64,000 bases of DNA, from the NCBI GenBank assembly GCA_017430135.1, contig JAFRNM010000001.1, forward strand, positions 271,242 through 335,241. The letters are read 5' to 3'. Below are positions 39,012 through 46,930 of this stretch, in pieces. Position 1 is the stretch's first letter, and each line of letters begins with the position of its first letter. This DNA is from Clostridia bacterium. GTDB taxonomy: Bacteria; Bacillota; Clostridia; TANB77; CAG-508. The position numbers were made by a program, and so were the translations under genes. Below the pieces are notes generated by a model. That model was not told the DNA's origin, ran no database searches, and saw only the letters and a list, made by a program, of their open reading frames with translations.

Positions 39012-40553
39012 ATGAAAGACAAACTTACAATGCTAATGATATTAGATGGGTTTGGAGATAACTCAAATGCAGAAGGAAATGCAGTAAAACAAGCAAATAC
39101 ACCTAATATTGATAAACTAATGAAAAAATATGCAAGCACAGATATATTTACAAGTGGGCATTATGTAGGATTACCAGATGGACAAATGGGAAATTCTGAA
39201 GTTGGTCACACAAATATAGGCGCAGGAAGAATTGTATACCAAGAATTAACAAGAATTACAAAATCAATAGAAGATGGAGATTTCTTCTCAAATCAAGAAT
39301 TAATCGCAGCTATTGATAATTGTAAGAAAAATAACTCAAAATTACACATATTGGGGTTAGTATCAGATGGTGGAGTTCACAGCCATGATAGACACCTTTA
39401 TGGTTTATTAGAATTAGCTAAAAGAAGAGATTTTGAAAATGTATATGTTCATTGTTTCTTAGATGGAAGAGATACACCACCAGCATCAGCTGAAAACTAT
39501 ATTGCAAAATTACAAGAAAAAATGAACGAAAAAGGTGTAGGAAAAATAGCTTCAATAAGCGGAAGATTCTATGCAATGGATAGAGATAAAAGATGGCAAA
39601 GAGTTCAAAAAGCATATGATGCAATGGTCAAAGGTGAAGGAATAAAAGCAGCAAATGTAATTAAAGCAATAGAAGATTCATACCAAAAAGAAGTATTTGA
39701 TGAGTTTGTGGAGCCAACAGTAATTTGCAATAATGGCGAACCAATTGCGACAATTGGTAAAAATGATTCTGTAATATGCTTCAACTTTAGACCAGATAGA
39801 GCAAGAGAAATTACTAGAACATTAGTAGATACAGAGTTTAATGAATTTGATACTAAAAAAGATTTAAATCTTTATTATGTATGCTTTACAAATTATGATG
39901 AAACAATGCCAAACGTACACATTGCATTCAAAAAAGAAGCATTAAACAATACATTTGGAGAATATATAAGCAAAAATGGTTTAACACAATTAAGAATAGC
40001 AGAAACAGAAAAATATGCACATGTTACATTCTTCTTTAATGGTGGAGAAGAAAAACAATTCGAAGGAGAAGATAGAATTTTAATACCATCTCCAAAAGTT
40101 GAAACATATGATTTAAAACCTGAAATGAGTGCTTATGAAGTAACAGAAAAAGTATGTGATGCAATTGCAAATGATAGATTTGACAACATTATTCTAAATT
40201 TTGCAAATCCAGACATGGTTGGACACACAGGAAGTCTACCAGCTGCAATAAAAGCGGTAGAAACAGTAGATGAATGCGTAGGAAAAATAGTTTCTTTAAT
40301 TGAAGAAAAGGAAGGAAACTTAATAATAACAGCAGATCATGGTAACTGTGAGCAAATGATAGATTACAAAACAGGAGAACCACACACAGCACATACAACA
40401 AACCCAGTTCCAATCATTGTAATAAATGGTAAAAACAAAATAAAACTAAGAGAAGGCGGAATACTAGCTGATTTAGCGCCAACAATGCTAGATATGATGG
40501 GATTAGAAAAACCTTCAGAAATGACTGGAAGTACTTTAATTGTAAAGGAATAA
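39012..40553 (+). CDS. gpmI: 2,3-bisphosphoglycerate-independent phosphoglycerate mutase
   Basis: 513 aa with iPGM family motifs. Confidence 0.92.
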   Translation: MKDKLTMLMILDGFGDNSNAEGNAVKQANTPNIDKLMKKYASTDIFTSGHYVGLPDGQMGNSEVGHTNIGAGRIVYQELTRITKSIEDGDFFSNQELIAAIDNCKKNNSKLHILGLVSDGGVHSHDRHLYGLLELAKRRDFENVYVHCFLDGRDTPPASAENYIAKLQEKMNEKGVGKIASISGRFYAMDRDKRWQRVQKAYDAMVKGEGIKAANVIKAIEDSYQKEVFDEFVEPTVICNNGEPIATIGKNDSVICFNFRPDRAREITRTLVDTEFNEFDTKKDLNLYYVCFTNYDETMPNVHIAFKKEALNNTFGEYISKNGLTQLRIAETEKYAHVTFFFNGGEEKQFEGEDRILIPSPKVETYDLKPEMSAYEVTEKVCDAIANDRFDNIILNFANPDMVGHTGSLPAAIKAVETVDECVGKIVSLIEEKEGNLIITADHGNCEQMIDYKTGEPHTAHTTNPVPIIVINGKNKIKLREGGILADLAPTMLDMMGLEKPSEMTGSTLIVKE

Positions 40554-40560
40554 ATAAAAA

Positions 40561-40597
40561 TATAGCGAACAAAATAAATTTAAATTTTGTTCGCTAT
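40561..40597 (+). terminator. rho-independent terminator after gpmI
   Basis: tatagcgaacaaaat ... attttgttcgctata. Confidence 0.55.
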
Positions 40598-40627
40598 AAA
40601 TTAAACTATAGAAAAAAAGAGGTAAAA

Positions 40628-41302
40628 ATGTTAAAAACAACTCGAAAAATTAGAGGAATATATGAAGACATTCAAAAAATGTTATTTTACATGATTCCAG
40701 AAAAATGGGAAGAACTATATTTATATGCTTCAGTAATAGAAAGATTTGGAAATGTTGAAACAGGAGAGCTTTTCTTTTACTACATACCAAAAGGAATATT
40801 AAGAAAAAACCCTGTAAATGTATATGAAATTTCCTCTAAGTTTAATCTTGAAGAAGGCGAATATTTAAGACTTGTAGAACTTTTATATGATAAAATAAAA
40901 GAATTACGAAATGAACATAAAAAACAAGAAAGAAAAACATGGAGTAATTTAACAATAATAATAAAAAATATGAAATTTAGAGTAGAATATGATTATGAAG
41001 ATATACAAAATAGCGAATTTGATAGTTTCCAAAGGCATATAATTTGGAGAAGTAAATATTTAAATATTGGAATGGAAAAAGTAAACAAAGCCGAACGCAC
41101 CATTTTAGAGAGATATTATAACATGGATAGAACTTCAATAAAAACAGATGAATATGAGGAAAACATTTATATTAAGGATGTAAAAAATATGGTTGATTAC
41201 CAAACCGAAAATTATGAGACAATACAAAATGTTGAGTATATGGCGAGTAAGAATGATAAAAAAAGAAAGAATCAGATTTTAATGATGGATGAAGAGCAGT
41301 GA
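40628..41302 (+). CDS. DUF600 / YezG-like immunity-family protein with C-terminal extension
   Basis: MIPEKWEELYLYASVIE...FYYIP...WSNLTIIIKNMKFRVEYDYEDI matches the YezG/DUF600 pattern (IPEEWEKLYLYAEV...WTNLTL). No cognate LXG/YeeF toxin gene lies upstream. Confidence 0.55.
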   Translation: MLKTTRKIRGIYEDIQKMLFYMIPEKWEELYLYASVIERFGNVETGELFFYYIPKGILRKNPVNVYEISSKFNLEEGEYLRLVELLYDKIKELRNEHKKQERKTWSNLTIIIKNMKFRVEYDYEDIQNSEFDSFQRHIIWRSKYLNIGMEKVNKAERTILERYYNMDRTSIKTDEYEENIYIKDVKNMVDYQTENYETIQNVEYMASKNDKKRKNQILMMDEEQ

Positions 41303-41512
41303 TTTTATATCATTGTTCTTTATTTTTGGTTTTTTTATTACTATTTCTTTGCTTAATATTATTATTTTCTGCAACTCCCAACTGCATAAGAAAATCTAAA
41401 AAATTTTTCAAAAATTTTAAGATTTTCTAATTTGTCGGTCCCCCCGAATGTTGCTTGAAAATAATAATATTAAGCAAATCAGAAAAAACGAACAAAAATT
41501 TTAAAAAACTAT

Positions 41513-41541
41513 TGACAAATTTAAATTCATGATATAAAATA
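41513..41541 (+). promoter_or_regulatory. sigma-A-like promoter (TTGACA, 17 bp spacer, TAAAAT)
   Basis: Hexamers read directly from the sequence. Confidence 0.35.
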
Positions 41542-41601
41542 ACACCAGAAAGCGAACAAGACTTCGCAAAACAAATAATCGAATAAATGGAGGGTAATAT
41601 T

Positions 41602-42105
41602 ATGAATTTAGTTAGAGTTAAAAGTGTAGTAAAAACAATAGAAAGACATCCAGTTGAAATACTTGGAAATGATTATAGAGTTAGAATAGAATATAAAAAT
41701 GTTAAAGTTATGGAATTAAATGTTTATGAAGATACAATAAGAATTACTCTTCAAAATAAATATAAAAAAGTAAACAATGAAAAGATGTTAGATTTTGCAA
41801 TAAATAAAATGTATAATGCAATAGCTAAAGTAGAAGTAGAAAGAGCAATGGAAAAAACAAGATTAATGCTTGGATTTGCACCAGAGGATTATAAAATAGA
41901 AAAAATAACAGGCCTTGCAAAATGTGAAGATGGGATTATTACAATAAATCCTGAAATAGTAATGTACAATAGAAATATAATAGACTTTATAGTTTTAAAA
42001 CAATATTTACATCTAAGATACAAAACAGAATGCAAAGGCTATATGAAGCTTTTAAAAGAACATTGTAAAAATTATGAAAAATTTGAAAAAGTCTTGAAAT
42101 TTTAA
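41602..42105 (+). CDS. DUF45/YgjP-like protein lacking the HExxH zinc motif
   Basis: GGAGGG RBS. C-terminal block IDFIVLKQYLHLRYKTECKGYMKLLKEHCKNYEKFEKVLK aligns with the DUF45 block I(D)YVIIHELAHLxHxNHSxxFxxLxxxxPDYxxRxKWLK, but with KQ in place of HE. Confidence 0.4.
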   Translation: MNLVRVKSVVKTIERHPVEILGNDYRVRIEYKNVKVMELNVYEDTIRITLQNKYKKVNNEKMLDFAINKMYNAIAKVEVERAMEKTRLMLGFAPEDYKIEKITGLAKCEDGIITINPEIVMYNRNIIDFIVLKQYLHLRYKTECKGYMKLLKEHCKNYEKFEKVLKF

Positions 42106-42170
42106 TAAGAAATTTGCTATAATAACAATAGCAAATTTTTTTATTATTCGTGACTATAAATTAAATATAT

Positions 42171-42245
42171 TGGGGTGTCGCCAAGCGGTAAGGCATCGGA
42201 CTCTGACTCCGACATTCGTGTGTTCGAATCACACCACCCCAGCCA
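42171..42245 (+). tRNA. tRNA-Gln (anticodon CTG)
   Basis: Cloverleaf with 7-bp acceptor stem tggggtg/cacccca, anticodon loop cuCUGac, T-loop ttcgaat, 3' CCA encoded. Confidence 0.85.
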
Positions 42246-42287
42246 AAAAGAAATCTGTTCGAACTAATAATTCGAGCAGATTTTTTA
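42246..42287 (+). terminator. rho-independent terminator (atctgttcgaa ... ttcgagcagat + T6); member of a repeated terminator family
   Basis: Same arms recur at about 45840 and about 46880. Confidence 0.55.
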
Positions 42288-42314
42288 TTGTGCAAAAAAA
42301 GGTTCGCAAAAGTC

Positions 42315-42343
42315 TTGCTTTTGTTGGTGGAATTTGCTATAAT
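42315..42343 (+). promoter_or_regulatory. sigma-A-like promoter (TTGCTT, 17 bp spacer, TATAAT)
   Basis: Consensus -10 element. Drives the MazF-like gene. Confidence 0.45.
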
Positions 42344-42429
42344 CATGTTAAAAATATCACAATTGTGAAAGTAAGAAAAGTAGAAGATAATAATATTTAG
42401 AAAAAAAATATGTAAAAGGAGAAATGAAC

Positions 42430-42960
42430 ATGGAACCAAACGGACAAGGAACAAATGAAATAGAAAATGATGATAATTCTGCATATGAAGAAGAAAAAGG
42501 AAATGCAGTAGCACATAAAGATAATGCGTTGCAAAAATTAAATGCTTTATTATTAAAATATATTAATAATCCTGAAACTATAGCAAAATCAGATAAATTA
42601 TCATATTGGTTGGAAGACTATTGTAGATATTTAGATTTAGAAGATAAATTTAATCCAAAATTTATGAAGAAATATGAAAGAGGAGATGTAATAAAAGTTA
42701 ATTTAGGATATAACATAGGAAATGAGGAAGGTGGATTACATTATTGTATTGTTGTAGATAAGCATAATTCAAATTTATCTGGAGTTGTAACAGTTATTCC
42801 ACTTACTTCTGATAAAGAAAAAACACCGCGTTTTGCAGATGTAGCGTTAGGAAAAGAAATATACATTAAATTAAATGAAAAATTAGATGCAATAAAATTA
42901 ATAGTTTCAAAAAATATAAATGAAATTAATAAAAATGAAAATGAAACAACTATTTTTTAA
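42430..42960 (+). CDS. MazF/PemK-like endoribonuclease domain protein with about 80-aa N-terminal extension
   Basis: AAGGAG RBS 8 nt before ATG 42430. C-terminal half RGDVIKVNLGYNIGNEEGGLHYCIVVDKHNSNLSGVVTVIPLTS aligns with MazF [26 protein letters not shown]...PTAIVAAIT. Confidence 0.55.
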   Translation: MEPNGQGTNEIENDDNSAYEEEKGNAVAHKDNALQKLNALLLKYINNPETIAKSDKLSYWLEDYCRYLDLEDKFNPKFMKKYERGDVIKVNLGYNIGNEEGGLHYCIVVDKHNSNLSGVVTVIPLTSDKEKTPRFADVALGKEIYIKLNEKLDAIKLIVSKNINEINKNENETTIF

Positions 42961-43286
42961 ATGAAAAATTTTATGAATTTATATGAATTTTGTTTGACAA
43001 AATTCATATAATATATTATAATGTAATTACAAGGTTGGGCGACTTATGTTGACCGCAACATAAATAGAAGACAAAAAGATGACTCGAAAGAGTCATCTTT
43101 TTAATTTCACAACAGAAAAATGCACCAACTGGTGCATTTTTCGTTATATTTATAGAAAACCTTTTAGACAAGAGTAAAGTTATGAAAATAAAAATAATTT
43201 AAATTGCGCAACAGCTGTTGCGCAATTATAGTTAGAATAATAATATGAAAATATAATAAAACCATATCAAAATAAAGTCAGTTAAA

Positions 43287-43508
43287 TTACTTTATTTTAG
43301 GATATGGTTTTTTCTCATCTGTTAATTTAGCAATATAATCAATTGAAGTTTTATAATAATTAGCAAAAATTTTCATAGTATCTAAAGGAATCATTCTTTC
43401 ATCTTTTTCATATCTAATATAAGAATTTTTGGAAATATAAGCTAATTTTGCACAAAAATCTTGAGTTAAATCATTATCTTCTCTTAATTCTTTCAATCTT
43501 GTTTGCAT
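43287..43508 (-). CDS. XRE-family helix-turn-helix transcriptional regulator
   Basis: MQTRLKELREDNDLTQDFCAKLAYISKNSYIRYE is an HTH_XRE motif. GAGGTGA RBS. Confidence 0.7.
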   Translation of the reverse strand: MQTRLKELREDNDLTQDFCAKLAYISKNSYIRYEKDERMIPLDTMKIFANYYKTSIDYIAKLTDEKKPYPKIK

Positions 43509-43552
43509 TAAATTCACCTCAAAAATATTATATAAAAGTTCTCCATATGGGG

Positions 43553-43581
43553 TTGACAAAATACTCCATTTAGGGTATTAT
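43553..43581 (+). promoter_or_regulatory. sigma-A-like promoter (TTGACA, 17 bp spacer, TATTAT) for the second pilin-like gene
   Basis: Hexamers read directly from the sequence. Confidence 0.4.
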
Positions 43582-43618
43582 TTTTATAGAATTTATATAA
43601 ATATGGGGGAATATACAA

Positions 43619-45526
43619 ATGGTAAAAAATGAGAGAAACAAAGGAATAACTTTAATTGCTTTAATCGTAACAATAGTGGTTTTATTGATTTTAGCGGGAG
43701 TAACAATAAATGCAATAACGGGTAGTGAAAGTGCAATGGAGAAAGCAACAGAGGCAAGAGAAAAAAATATACAAGGGTCAGAATTGGAACAAATAAAATT
43801 ATGTGTAGTAAATGCTATGGCTCAGGGGCTAGATGGAAAAGTAAGTGAAACAAATTTAAAAACAGCTTTGAATGGTGTTGTTGCACAATCAGAAATCAAT
43901 AAAATTACTGGAGCAGGTCCTTGGACTATTCAAGGAAATTCTGGTAAAAAATATAGAATTACTAATAGTGGTTTAGTTGATATACTAGATGTTATTACAA
44001 GCGGATTTGATTTTAAATGGCAAGCAGCAACCTTGGATTCATCTAATGGTGTGATTAATACTAATGTATTGAGTGGTTATCCTTTAAATAATTATTTATC
44101 TGACATTTTTTATTTTGATAAAATAAAAATAAATATTTCTGATAATATATTAATTAAAATTGCTTACTATGATGCAAATGGTAATTTTATATCTGCTGAA
44201 CCATGGAAAAGTAAAAGCCAAACAAATTGGTCAAATGGTGGAATAGAAAAAATTACTATAGAAGATTCATATATTAGAATATGTATAGCGGATACAACAG
44301 TAAATAGTACAGGTGCTTATACATTAACATCTGAAGAAATTGCTTCTCGTTTTTCCTATGAAATATATAAAAATAAATTAGAAGAAAATGTTGAAGTGAT
44401 TTCAAGTGGTTTTTATTTTAACTGGAAAACAGCAACTTTAGATTCATCTAATGGTAATATAAATTATAGTGCTAGCAGTGGGGCTACTTTGAATAATTAT
44501 TTATCTGATGTTTTTCATTTTGAAAAAATCAAACTTAATATTTCGGATAATTTATTGATAAAAATTGCTTACTATGATAAAAATGATAACTTTATATCTG
44601 CTGATCCATGGAAAAGTAAAAACCAAACAAATTGGTCAAGCGGTGGAACAGAGCAGATAATAATAGAAGATTCATATATTAGAATATGTATAGCAGATAC
44701 AACAGTAAATAGTACAGGTGCTTATACGTTAACAGATGAGCAATTATCTTCTCGTTTTACTTATGAAATATATGGAAGTGAATATGAACAAAAATCTAAA
44801 ATTGTTTTGCCTGATGTTGAAAAAGGTGAAACAGGTAAAGGATTTACCTGTACAGGATTAACTTACGACGAGACTGATAAATGTTTTTATGTGGGGAATT
44901 ATGGAAAAATGCTACCATCAGATTCTACAATATATAATACTATAGTAAAATTATCTGCAGATGGTAATACAGTTTTAGGAGAGATAAAACTATACGATAC
45001 TATTCCAACAATGACGGGAGATATCCAAGGATTAACAGTTGATTATAGTGATAATACAATTTGGGTTGTAGCATATGCAGAAGGAAAAATATATCATATA
45101 AATAAAAGTGGTACATTAATAGGAACTGTAAATCATACTGGAGCAAATGGAATTGCTTATGATAATCGTACAGATACACTTTGGGTTCTTGCTATTACTA
45201 ATAATGGTGGAAATATAAAAAATATCACTAAATCAGGTGAAACTAATAAAACAATTACTTTTACTGGAATTAGTGCAGTAGACCAAATGTATTTAGATAC
45301 ACAAAGTAATACAATATATTTTTCAGCAGGAGCGAATTACAATTCTAATAATTATATTTATAAAGCTAATTTAAATACAGATGAAATTTCATTATATAAG
45401 ACTTTAGAGGATTCATATGCAATAGAAGGAATATGGATTAAAGACAATTTGCTTTATGTAATGAATGATGGATATTACCATTCAGCAAAATATAGATATA
45501 ACTATATGATGATATATAGTTTATAA
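43619..45526 (+). CDS. large surface protein, paralog of 13523-15274 in the N-terminus (NKGITLIALIVTIVVLLILAG), with two about 130-aa internal repeats and a C-terminal beta-propeller-like domain
   Basis: GGGGGA RBS. N-terminal 45 aa closely similar to the other pilin-like protein. Internal duplication from about 43970 to 44760. Confidence 0.6.
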   Translation: MVKNERNKGITLIALIVTIVVLLILAGVTINAITGSESAMEKATEAREKNIQGSELEQIKLCVVNAMAQGLDGKVSETNLKTALNGVVAQSEINKITGAGPWTIQGNSGKKYRITNSGLVDILDVITSGFDFKWQAATLDSSNGVINTNVLSGYPLNNYLSDIFYFDKIKINISDNILIKIAYYDANGNFISAEPWKSKSQTNWSNGGIEKITIEDSYIRICIADTTVNSTGAYTLTSEEIASRFSYEIYKNKLEENVEVISSGFYFNWKTATLDSSNGNINYSASSGATLNNYLSDVFHFEKIKLNISDNLLIKIAYYDKNDNFISADPWKSKNQTNWSSGGTEQIIIEDSYIRICIADTTVNSTGAYTLTDEQLSSRFTYEIYGSEYEQKSKIVLPDVEKGETGKGFTCTGLTYDETDKCFYVGNYGKMLPSDSTIYNTIVKLSADGNTVLGEIKLYDTIPTMTGDIQGLTVDYSDNTIWVVAYAEGKIYHINKSGTLIGTVNHTGANGIAYDNRTDTLWVLAITNNGGNIKNITKSGETNKTITFTGISAVDQMYLDTQSNTIYFSAGANYNSNNYIYKANLNTDEISLYKTLEDSYAIEGIWIKDNLLYVMNDGYYHSAKYRYNYMMIYSL

Positions 45527-45536
45527 TGATAAGATT

Positions 45537-45571
45537 AAAGGATATCGTTTTACAAAAGATATCCTTTAATT
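45537..45571 (+). terminator. rho-independent terminator
   Basis: aaaggatatc gttttacaaaa gatatccttt. Confidence 0.5.
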
Positions 45572-45993
45572 ATATCATTATTTTTTGCAACATCAATTTT
45601 CATACAATTTTTTTTGAGAAAATTTTAATAATACTTGTTTCAGTAAAAAAGGCAAAATATATTTAAAAGCACTTGCTAAATCAAAAAAATTATGTTAAAT
45701 TATAACCATAGTAAATAGCAAAAAAATACACCAATACTCCCACATTTACAAAAATATTGCTATTGCTACATTTGAAACGGAAATTAGGAACTTTTTGCAA
45801 GGTAGAGTTTTCGCAAACGTCTATCTTGCAGGAGCCAAAAAGAAATCTGTTCGAACTAATAATTCGAGCAGTTTTTATATTATTAGCCTCATATACTTGA
45901 GGAAAAGTAGGAGTTATGGTATGATAGCAATAGTTAAACAAATAAAAGTAGCAAAAGAAATCTTAATGATAATATAAAAAGTGGAGGAATTAT

Positions 45994-46854
45994 ATGGAAA
46001 TAGTAGTAGGAAAAACAGCAGGTTTTTGCTATGGAGTAAAAAATGCTGTAACCAAAACAGAAAAAATGCTAACAGAAAATGAAAATATTTTTTGTTTAGG
46101 AGAATTAGTTCATAATGGTGAAGTGATAAAAAAACTAGAAAAAATGGGGTTAAAGGTAATAAATGATATTGAGGATGCAAATGATAAGGTAATTATAAGA
46201 GCTCATGGAATTCCAAGAGAAATATATACCAAGGCTAAAAAAAGAAATATAGAGATTTGTGACTATACATGCCCTATGGTTCTTAAAATACATAATATAG
46301 CAGAAGAATATGCCCAAAAAGGTTATTTCATTTTTTTAATTGGAAAGAAAGAACACCCAGAAATAATAGGAACTTTTAGTTTTTGCGGTAAAAATGCATA
46401 TGTATTAGAAAAAGTAGATGAAATTCAAGAGGCTATGGAAAATTTCAATAAAAGTAATACAAACAAAATACTAATAATAGCACAGACTACATTTAACTTA
46501 GAAAAATTTGAAATAATTGCACAAGCTATAAAAAAAGAAATAAATAGTAATGTTGAATTAGAAATAAAAAATACCATTTGTAATGCAACAAAGATAAGGC
46601 AAGAAGAAACCAATCAAATATCAAAAGAAGTACAATGTATGATAATTATTGGTGGCAAGAATAGTTCAAATACTCAAAAATTATACGATATTGCAAAGAA
46701 AAATTGCCAAAATGCTTTTGTAGTAGAAAATAAGGAAGAATTGCCGATAGATAGAATTAAAAATTTTAGAAAAATAGGAATAATGGCAGGAGCTTCAACT
46801 CCAAATGAAAGTATAAATGATATAATCAAACTAATAGAAGATAAGTTGTGTTAA
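45994..46854 (+). CDS. ispH: 4-hydroxy-3-methylbut-2-enyl diphosphate reductase
   Basis: Three conserved Cys (CYGV, CPMV, CNAT). 286 aa. LytB family. Confidence 0.9.
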   Translation: MEIVVGKTAGFCYGVKNAVTKTEKMLTENENIFCLGELVHNGEVIKKLEKMGLKVINDIEDANDKVIIRAHGIPREIYTKAKKRNIEICDYTCPMVLKIHNIAEEYAQKGYFIFLIGKKEHPEIIGTFSFCGKNAYVLEKVDEIQEAMENFNKSNTNKILIIAQTTFNLEKFEIIAQAIKKEINSNVELEIKNTICNATKIRQEETNQISKEVQCMIIIGGKNSSNTQKLYDIAKKNCQNAFVVENKEELPIDRIKNFRKIGIMAGASTPNESINDIIKLIEDKLC

Positions 46855-46930
46855 TACATTATGATAGACTATATTGTTAAATCTGTTCAAACAGATAATT
46901 CGAGCAGATTTTTAAATATTAAAAAAATTC

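Follow-up and report, generated by a model that had tools for sequence, protein, structure and literature searches.

What partners a MazF-like gene that has no antitoxin gene beside it? The question arises at a locus in a 64,000-nucleotide (nt) stretch of DNA from a Clostridia bacterium (contig JAFRNM010000001.1; the whole stretch is here called the window), where an earlier interpretation made without database searches (the sequence-only reading) had described a MazF/PemK-like open reading frame (ORF) directly after a tRNA-Gln gene and had suggested that its N-terminal extension could be a fused antitoxin. In textbook accounts, the type II toxin MazF always comes with a protein antitoxin. We found that the window gene is almost certainly a deletion-damaged remnant of a ~250-residue MazF-like protein, referred to below as long MazF, and that the 327-nt spacer behind it holds a conserved small RNA (sRNA) gene, which the sequence-only reading had omitted. 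We hold with high confidence that the long-MazF protein and the linked sRNA form one module. That the two act as toxin and RNA antitoxin, as a type III-like or abortive-infection module, is our favored reading of the sequence data, to which we assign a probability of roughly one in two. The features on which the argument turns are the following.

42315..42343, + strand: putative promoter driving the MazF-like gene, TTGCTT-N17-TATAAT, its −10 extended by TGn, as read from the sequence
42430..42960, + strand: truncated long-MazF gene, 176 aa, with ribosome-binding site (RBS) AAGGAG at 42416-42421
42937..42946, + strand: deletion scar, the sole remaining copy of the 10-nt microhomology GAAAATGAAA (blastn and junction sequences)
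42994..43022, + strand: sRNA promoter, TTGACA-N17-TATAAT, 12 of 12 consensus positions, 34 nt past the stop codon (consensus scan)
43029..43108, + strand: small structured RNA gene of class A, with 5′ ACAAGG, a stem-loop at 43034-43059, the unpaired motif AGAAGAC at 43066-43072, a terminator hairpin at ~43073-43103 and a U-tract

For the MazF-like gene, ATG 42430 is favored as the start codon, with AAGGAG located 8 nt upstream, over the alternative ATG 42424, which lies just 2 nt from AAGGAG; the closest homologue, P0001, likewise starts MEQNGQG. The MazF/PemK fold proposed by the sequence-only reading was recovered by profile search, with Pfam PemK_toxin matching residues 85–168 of the ORF (read as 178 aa from ATG 42424; E-value of 1.6e-9), and the tRNA-Gln (CTG) gene does lie directly upstream, at 42171-42245. 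Also borne out was the observation that the Arg-Pro of MazF is replaced by His-Tyr, the window motif being GNEEGGLHYC. However, the match reaches profile positions 1–81 of 109 only, and the gene is truncated by a 218-nt internal deletion with a frameshift. The claim that the gene has its own consensus promoter and RBS stood in part: the RBS (AAGGAG) is present, but the promoter is not a consensus one, as its −35 hexamer (TTGCTT) agrees at only 3 of 6 positions and went unlisted by the consensus scan, and the perfect promoter follows the gene.

The damage to the gene can be read from its relatives. A homologue search returned 549 relatives, nearly all of them 240–280 aa long, with P0001 (250 aa, 97% identity) as the best. 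P0001 is matched by window residues 1–172, while the final four residues, TTIF, are out of frame, and exactly where the ORF stops (...NENETTIF*) a second frame reads ...KMKMKQLFFK*, in which MKQLFFK is the C-terminus of P0001. Comparison of the window by blastn with the three contigs encoding P0001 (L001, L002, and L003) revealed that 218 nt (~72 codons) between two copies of GAAAATGAAA are absent from the window, with the frame shifted; specifically, 42241-42946 and 42937-43109 of the window align to 1135-1839 and 2048-2221 of L002. The deletion takes away helix 2 of an inserted hairpin, the final barrel strands and the larger part of the C-terminal helix, and with them the invariant KMKKGS...QITTISKQRIYDP block. 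The same 176-aa allele is recorded as MBR0490715.1 (a Clostridia metagenome-assembled genome [MAG]) and occurs on 16 public contigs, indicating a real allele and not an assembly error; most of the remaining proteins in its 90% cluster are 250 aa long. With the closing third of the fold gone, the invariant QITTISKQRIYDP segment included, the window protein is very probably non-functional as judged from its sequence.

In the intact members of the long-MazF family, the PemK_toxin profile matches end to end. A 91-member alignment revealed invariant or near-invariant residues at W60, E71, F74, Y82, G-x-N-x-G-x-EEGGLHY (93–105), T121, P124-L-T-S-x-K (124–129), M198, Q208, S213, K214, I217, P220, and D225; H104 is invariant in all 91 sequences and T126 nearly so (≥90%). 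The AlphaFold2 model of the intact protein (predicted local distance difference test [pLDDT] of 86.8, predicted template modeling score [pTM] of 0.78) contains helices at 11–45 and 48–73, strands within 86–141, helices at 143–166 and 173–197, strands within 202–213 and a helix at 234–248. The predicted architecture is an N-terminal helical hairpin followed by a MazF/PemK barrel that is split by a second helical hairpin of ~55 residues. The catalytic Arg of the MazF GG-x-R-P loop is R25 in B. subtilis and R29 in E. coli. In a profile search of Protein Data Bank (PDB) sequences, GGLhY of the family aligned with GGvRP, and SialvsQitTisKqRi with SviLleQirTidKqRl, of Bacillus MazF; here, as in a direct alignment to B. 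subtilis MazF, H104 and T126 fall opposite the Arg and Thr of the Bacillus protein. The family thus retains the substrate-binding segment and its active-site Thr but has His throughout at the position of the catalytic Arg, a replacement that extends to distant homologues in Staphylococcus and Streptococcus phages.

How the family has been named is contradictory. In PHROGs, P0001 matches phrog_1412 (“antitoxin mazE-like”) over positions 8–235 of 237 with an E-value of 6.2e-50, as do S. aureus and Streptococcus phage proteins. “Type II toxin” is also among the current annotations, and single RefSeq phage records (the records include NC_007064 of phage 92, NC_021801 of SA12 and NC_021863 of SA13) use “repressor protein” or “hypothetical protein.” The antitoxin label of phrog_1412 looks wrong, as sequence and predicted fold both point to the toxin MazF. 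No PADLOC model matches the long-MazF protein, and neither Pfam nor PADLOC gave a match to ToxN, CptN, or TenpN.

Next, we consider what accompanies the gene. The context sample comprised 88 loci from assemblies and species-representative genomes, 80 viral contigs and two cultured phages. In agreement with the sequence-only reading, a protein antitoxin gene was found neither in the window nor in any of the ~170 related loci, and clustering of the neighbors in the 88 loci revealed no conserved protein-coding neighbor, with repressors upstream and recombinases downstream in some and unrelated genes elsewhere. What does recur is the RNA gene. In the window, its promoter is the sole perfect sigma-70 match in the 5.7 kb scanned (40400-46100), and the 43029-43108 stretch folds with a minimum free energy of −28.2 kcal/mol (z −6.9). 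Between the window and loci L004–L008, the sRNA stretch is 90% identical, compared with 83% for the coding sequence. Where the 230–260 nt past the stop codon were read, nearly all loci share a common layout of a promoter, one or two hairpins, an unpaired motif and an intrinsic terminator, giving an RNA of ~80–100 nt. The promoters of related loci score 10–12 of 12 and lie a median of 14 nt past the stop codon, and the unpaired motif reads A(G/A)AAGAC, or AGAAUAC or AGAAGAU in some clades. A strict detector, requiring promoter, 5′ hairpin, motif and terminator together, found the RNA in 133 of the 163 loci with enough downstream sequence, against a background of 0.0038 per equal window per strand in the same loci. 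In 29 of the 30 loci that it missed, the element is visible by eye and was rejected on details of the detector only, which leaves L043 as the sole locus without the RNA.

We give scarcely any credence to the idea that there is no RNA gene here at all, the element being a terminator of the MazF-like gene combined with a promoter for genes downstream. The bidirectional terminator hairpin of the window would fit such an arrangement, as would the integrase gene that follows in the same direction in prophage loci. However, the promoter precedes the terminator, and between them lie a conserved linker motif and a covarying stem (6 of 10 pairs with compensatory changes and none broken). The predicted transcript also ends at an intrinsic terminator ahead of any ORF, and the next gene in the window is convergent. 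Furthermore, the element can occupy the opposite strand, as it does in L073, L082, and L086, where the RNA and protein genes converge, which indicates an independent gene and not a 3′ untranslated region.

Base-pair conservation was analyzed separately for two classes of the RNA. For class A (12 sequences), RNAalifold returned 21 pairs, 9 of them with compensatory changes; the covarying stem mentioned above is stem 1 of this class, an interrupted 10-bp stem in which the compensatory changes are double changes, and it is followed by the terminator. In the two-hairpin class (31 distinct sequences), 99.1% of the cells are paired and 9 of 12 pairs are compensatory; none of 500 shuffles matched the observed values, and sliding the partner strand reduced pairing to 22–52%. 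The two units of this class are alike (ACA-NN-G-stem-loop-stem-C-A-GUAU), and AA(A/G)AC stands before each, so the RNA can be described as a two-unit pseudo-repeat. A tandem-repeat test assigned two hairpin pseudo-repeats to most variants, and one hairpin plus the terminator hairpin to the class found in the window. Two covariance models were searched. Model R1 gave one strong match in the window (98 bits, E-value of 4e-17) and 18 strong matches across 735 kb of genome loci, all directly 3′ of the gene except for one orphan copy. Of 82 viral or phage loci, 62 gave a match to model R2 for the two-hairpin form, also directly 3′ of the gene, and L151 had an extra upstream copy. The same RNA design is present in Streptococcus phage Javan166 and, with a different sequence, in an S. 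aureus phage.

We also asked whether the sRNA corresponds to anything described. Rfam 15 returned no relevant family for ten loci spanning all variants (E-values up to 1–10), a result by which known RNA families, including RF02913, SprX, and Spy779816, were rejected as its identity. RF02913 (pemK motif) in particular gave no match at E ≤ 10 to the window RNA or to one class C RNA, and none at E-values up to 1–10 on eight other loci. The sRNA is likewise absent from PADLOC. Rfam does place Spy779816, an S. pyogenes small RNA, in Javan166 (L169, 3232-3318 on the − strand; 76 bits, above the gathering score), at a site on the opposite strand between the module sRNA and the integrase gene. A peptide encoded in the sRNA was rejected, as the short ATG frame differs among class A members. 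Finally, the idea that the codons for WLEDY mirror the conserved GAAGAC as a self-target was discarded, since most members have GAAGAT and no enrichment was found.

An RNA gene with its own strong promoter adjoining a toxin gene is what many type I loci look like, and the sRNA might accordingly be pictured as an antisense RNA that blocks translation of the MazF-like mRNA or promotes its decay. We regard such a role as highly improbable. The RNA is usually on the same strand as the gene and does not overlap it, and the duplexes predicted for it with its cognate mRNA, whether over the 5′ region or the full length, are no better than those with non-cognate ones (−17.8 versus −17.5 kcal/mol, P = 0.45), which largely refutes pairing with its own mRNA. 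Type I toxins, moreover, are small hydrophobic peptides and not MazF-fold proteins.

If protein and RNA belong together, the way in which the module decays is informative. Locus L020 (goat-ileum MAG RGIG2424, 4978-5490) is syntenic with the window over gpmI, the genes for YezG-like and YgjP-like proteins and tRNA-Gln. There, the protein gene lacks ~84 codons at its 5′ end and ~55 at its 3′ end (122-aa MBR0351087.1), whereas both the sRNA and its perfect promoter remain intact and the terminator stem carries a compensatory change. Thus, the protein was lost by different deletions in the window and in L020, and RNA and promoter were kept in both. A protein destroyed with its RNA kept, as in the window, is the decay order expected of a toxin and its antitoxin. 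In addition, an orphan class A RNA lies in L056 (model R1) and a second RNA of the L056 type in L011 (by eye), each beside a different variant of the module. L011 (~2836-3060) and L056 (~5790-6050) each hold one protein gene with two different tandem sRNA genes, one cognate and one orphan, and four MAGs hold different module variants at one gltX/RNase J site, which suggests module replacement with the old RNA retained.

The genomic setting of the family bears on what the pair might do. A frequent order is a cI/LexA-like or XRE repressor, the family gene and a tyrosine or serine recombinase, an order that corresponds to a prophage's lysogeny end. Streptococcus phage Javan166 shows repressor, gene and integrase in this order, and S. 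aureus phage vB_SauS_Mh15 (Phietavirus) shows HTH, ImmA, PH-domain protein, gene and integrase; by tblastn, the gene is present in 39 Staphylococcus and 7 Streptococcus phage records. Solitary copies occur amid housekeeping genes, at the gltX (glutamyl-tRNA synthetase)/RNase J site in L009, L011, L033, and L056, and the window copy is likewise solitary. Its hosts belong to the Clostridia and Lachnospiraceae of gut and rumen, among them Coprococcus, Muricomes, Velocimicrobium, and Anaerostipes. We conclude that the module moves as a unit, protein and RNA being passed on together in unrelated genomic settings, and is carried in temperate phages and prophages of Clostridia, Streptococcus, and Staphylococcus.

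The typical position between repressor and integrase, the loss of the catalytic Arg and the strong constitutive-type RNA promoter, as expected for a regulator expressed in lysogens, would also suit a protein–RNA pair that is not a toxin–antitoxin (TA) system. In such a pair, a MazF-fold factor would bind or process the sRNA and regulate lysogeny, integration or excision, superinfection exclusion or host genes. We consider this explanation possible but doubtful. The solitary copies between housekeeping genes (L009, L011, L033, L056, and the window) have no phage genes nearby, and a protein that is lost first, with the RNA kept and orphan RNAs left behind, follows the pattern predicted by a toxic protein. 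The RNA also shows no complementarity to the mRNA of its own gene, the only target examined.

The other candidate for the role of antitoxin is the N-terminal domain itself. In a self-contained, fused TA protein, this acidic helical domain would mask the MazF groove, and the RNA would be unrelated or merely regulatory. The domain is conserved in the family and is indeed acidic, as the sequence-only reading had it (17 D/E versus 11 K/R in the first 84 residues), and it carries an invariant aromatic/acidic patch, SYWLEDY, that resembles the Trp-containing acidic tail of MazE; the absence of a protein antitoxin gene from every locus also fits. However, a phmmer search with the N-terminal domain alone against 1.84 billion representative proteins never returned a stand-alone antitoxin-like gene: the only matches were N-termini of the long-MazF family or frameshifted fragments running into the RGD...GNEEGG core. 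A domain never found alone or with another partner gives no sign of an antitoxin past, and this one is predicted to be a rigid helical hairpin (pLDDT of 90–98) and not a labile tail. Fusion would also leave unexplained both the near-universal linked sRNA and the retention of that RNA where the protein is destroyed. Overall, we judge a fused antitoxin unlikely; the suggestion gained no positive evidence, and the downstream sRNA is the better-supported partner. The C-terminus of the window protein, with the last third of the fold lost, comes close to the catalytically dead C-terminus that the sequence-only reading had itself named as a ground for rejection.

Returning to the favored reading of toxin and RNA antitoxin, direct inhibition of the protein by the RNA is suggested by their linkage, the pattern of decay and the absence of an antisense signal. 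In MazF dimers, a groove where the two subunits meet binds single-stranded RNA. As a ribonuclease or RNA binder, the long-MazF protein would do harm if left free, and the abundantly made sRNA would bind the dimeric protein directly and neutralize it, with the single-stranded AAGAC linker possibly occupying the substrate groove as a pseudo-substrate or processing site. The enzyme would then stay inactive until the supply of RNA drops, for example, upon phage infection or loss of the element. The window would likely represent a decayed copy of such a module, with a dead toxin and an intact sRNA gene as the only part likely to be functional.

Several points weigh against this mechanism. The catalytic Arg of MazF is His in every member, and the protein may cleave RNA by other chemistry or only bind it. 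Known type III systems have upstream RNA repeats under one shared promoter and ToxN, CptN, or TenpN toxins, and neither holds here; the RNA class of the window, with one hairpin and a terminator hairpin, also lacks two clear repeats. The N-terminal or inserted helical hairpins may be autoinhibitory, and where the integrase gene follows in the same direction, as in many prophage loci, a role of the sRNA in int expression is conceivable. Finally, we found no MazF-family toxin with an RNA antitoxin in a search confined to open-access papers and preprints, by which an earlier description may have been missed.

If the favored reading is true, a large branch of MazF that is steadily paired with an sRNA blurs the line between type II and type III systems and links classical MazF to RNA antitoxins, and the sRNA is a new RNA class for the catalogues. 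A broader proposal can be made only tentatively from these comparisons: the modules may constitute an undescribed, widespread type III-like or abortive-infection class in temperate Firmicutes phages, including S. aureus phietaviruses and Streptococcus Javan prophages, in which a true MazF-family protein, whose active site is His-based and which carries an accessory helical domain, would be checked not by MazE but by a dedicated two-hairpin sRNA with its own promoter. The branch sits in lysogeny modules of S. aureus, streptococcal and gut Clostridia phages, and the RNA finding would help settle their contradictory annotation. Some of these phages are known from cultivable hosts, namely, vB_SauS_Mh15, S. 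aureus phages 92, SA12, and SA13, and Streptococcus phage Javan166. For the window itself, the gene is a pseudogene, and what remains is an unannotated sRNA gene.

The surroundings of the module in the window comprise the following features.

within 40628-42105: YezG-like (DUF600, E-value of 2.8e-27) and YgjP-like (DUF45, E-value of 3.9e-11) proteins (Pfam)
42171..42245, + strand: tRNA-Gln, anticodon CTG, immediately upstream of the module (ARAGORN; Rfam tRNA, 62.6 bits)
42241..42289, + strand: first copy of a 49-nt direct repeat, with further copies at 45833-45881 and 46869-46917
43110..43277, strand not assigned: 168-nt segment outside the conserved module, with terminator-like hairpins at 43115-43142 (+) and 43202-43227 (−)
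43287..43508, − strand: XRE/HTH_3 regulator, 73 aa from ATG 43508 (mechanical ORF to 43559; Pfam HTH_3, E-value of 5.7e-10; RstR-like in NCBIfam)
43619-45526, + strand: pilin-like gene, 635 aa, with a weak N-terminal prepilin-type methylation motif and C-terminal SdiA-regulated/SGL propeller-like matches

The neighbors named by the sequence-only reading are present (a DUF600-like protein, a DUF45-like protein without HExxH and an XRE regulator), but its picture of an XRE gene transcribed divergently 330 bp away has to be turned around. The XRE gene is convergent with the MazF-like gene (tail to tail, 327 nt apart) and divergent only from the pilin-like gene at 43619. Given this orientation, and a presence beside the gene that is limited to the three closest loci (L001, L020, and the window), it was rejected as a partner in the module. 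The interval from the tRNA to the MazF-like gene holds no + strand ORF of at least 40 aa save one overlapping the tRNA itself. The genes for the YezG-like and YgjP-like proteins lie outside the variable segment, given that their synteny is kept in L020; the YezG-like protein, of an immunity type, carries a 70-aa C-terminal extension. The window and L020 share the 168-nt segment that separates the sRNA terminator from the XRE stop codon, and L001 lacks it; the hairpins of this segment are GC-rich, and it may be a small insertion or a set of stacked terminators.

A 33-nt palindromic, terminator-like element occurs at 42251-42283, 45843-45875, and 46879-46911 (3 in a pattern search versus 0 expected), and two of its copies sit in the 49-nt direct repeats that flank the segment with the MazF-like, XRE, and pilin-like genes. 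In L002 and L003, the pilin-like gene is connected at its 3′ end, via the 49-nt repeat, straight to the MazF-like gene, and L001 has different genes in place of the pilin-like gene, which in the window contains two 405-nt tandem repeats (43952-44251 and 44357-44656) that are 77% identical. Differences in gene order between strains probably arose by recombination across the 49-nt repeat. A tRNA-borne integrative island bounded by these repeats was rejected, as the repeat overlaps the tRNA by 5 nt only, no integrase is present and there are three palindromic copies; the 49-nt repeat is better seen as a recombination-prone repeat than as an island boundary.

Compared with known systems, long MazF shares the PemK/MazF barrel with the MazF/PemK/Kid type II toxins (PF02452; B. 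subtilis EndoA and S. aureus MazF) but is about twice as long, owing to its N-terminal and ~55-residue inserted helical hairpins, and has His for the catalytic Arg; in place of a MazE/PemI gene, it has a downstream sRNA gene. Within its own family, phrog_1412 is recorded without an RNA partner, and Rfam RF02913, to judge from its name a motif located near Firmicutes pemK genes, gave no match with its covariance model. ToxN, a type III toxin, is said to share a Kid/MazF-like fold. Type III TA systems comprise three families, ToxIN, CptIN, and TenpIN (PMC8860590). The long-MazF module resembles these in pairing a presumed endoribonuclease with a structured non-coding RNA (ncRNA), mostly of two similar hairpin units, and in its carriage on mobile elements and phages. 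It differs in its MazF-family toxin and in an RNA that lies downstream under its own promoter, has at most two units and is sometimes on the opposite strand, whereas in ToxIN, CptIN, and TenpIN the repeat array precedes the toxin gene, shares its promoter and is separated from it by a terminator. The closest experimental precedent is AbiF of a C. difficile prophage (AbiF_Cd), which is toxic and dimeric and is neutralized in trans by the ncRNA RCd22, composed of two hairpin motifs, a single-stranded linker modeled in the groove of the dimer and a terminator at the end (bioRxiv 10.1101/2025.04.15.648962). The AbiF fold is unrelated (Abi_2/HEPN-like versus MazF), and RCd22, unlike the long-MazF sRNA, lies upstream of its protein gene, also attenuates abiF transcription and has its motif in Rfam (RF03085).

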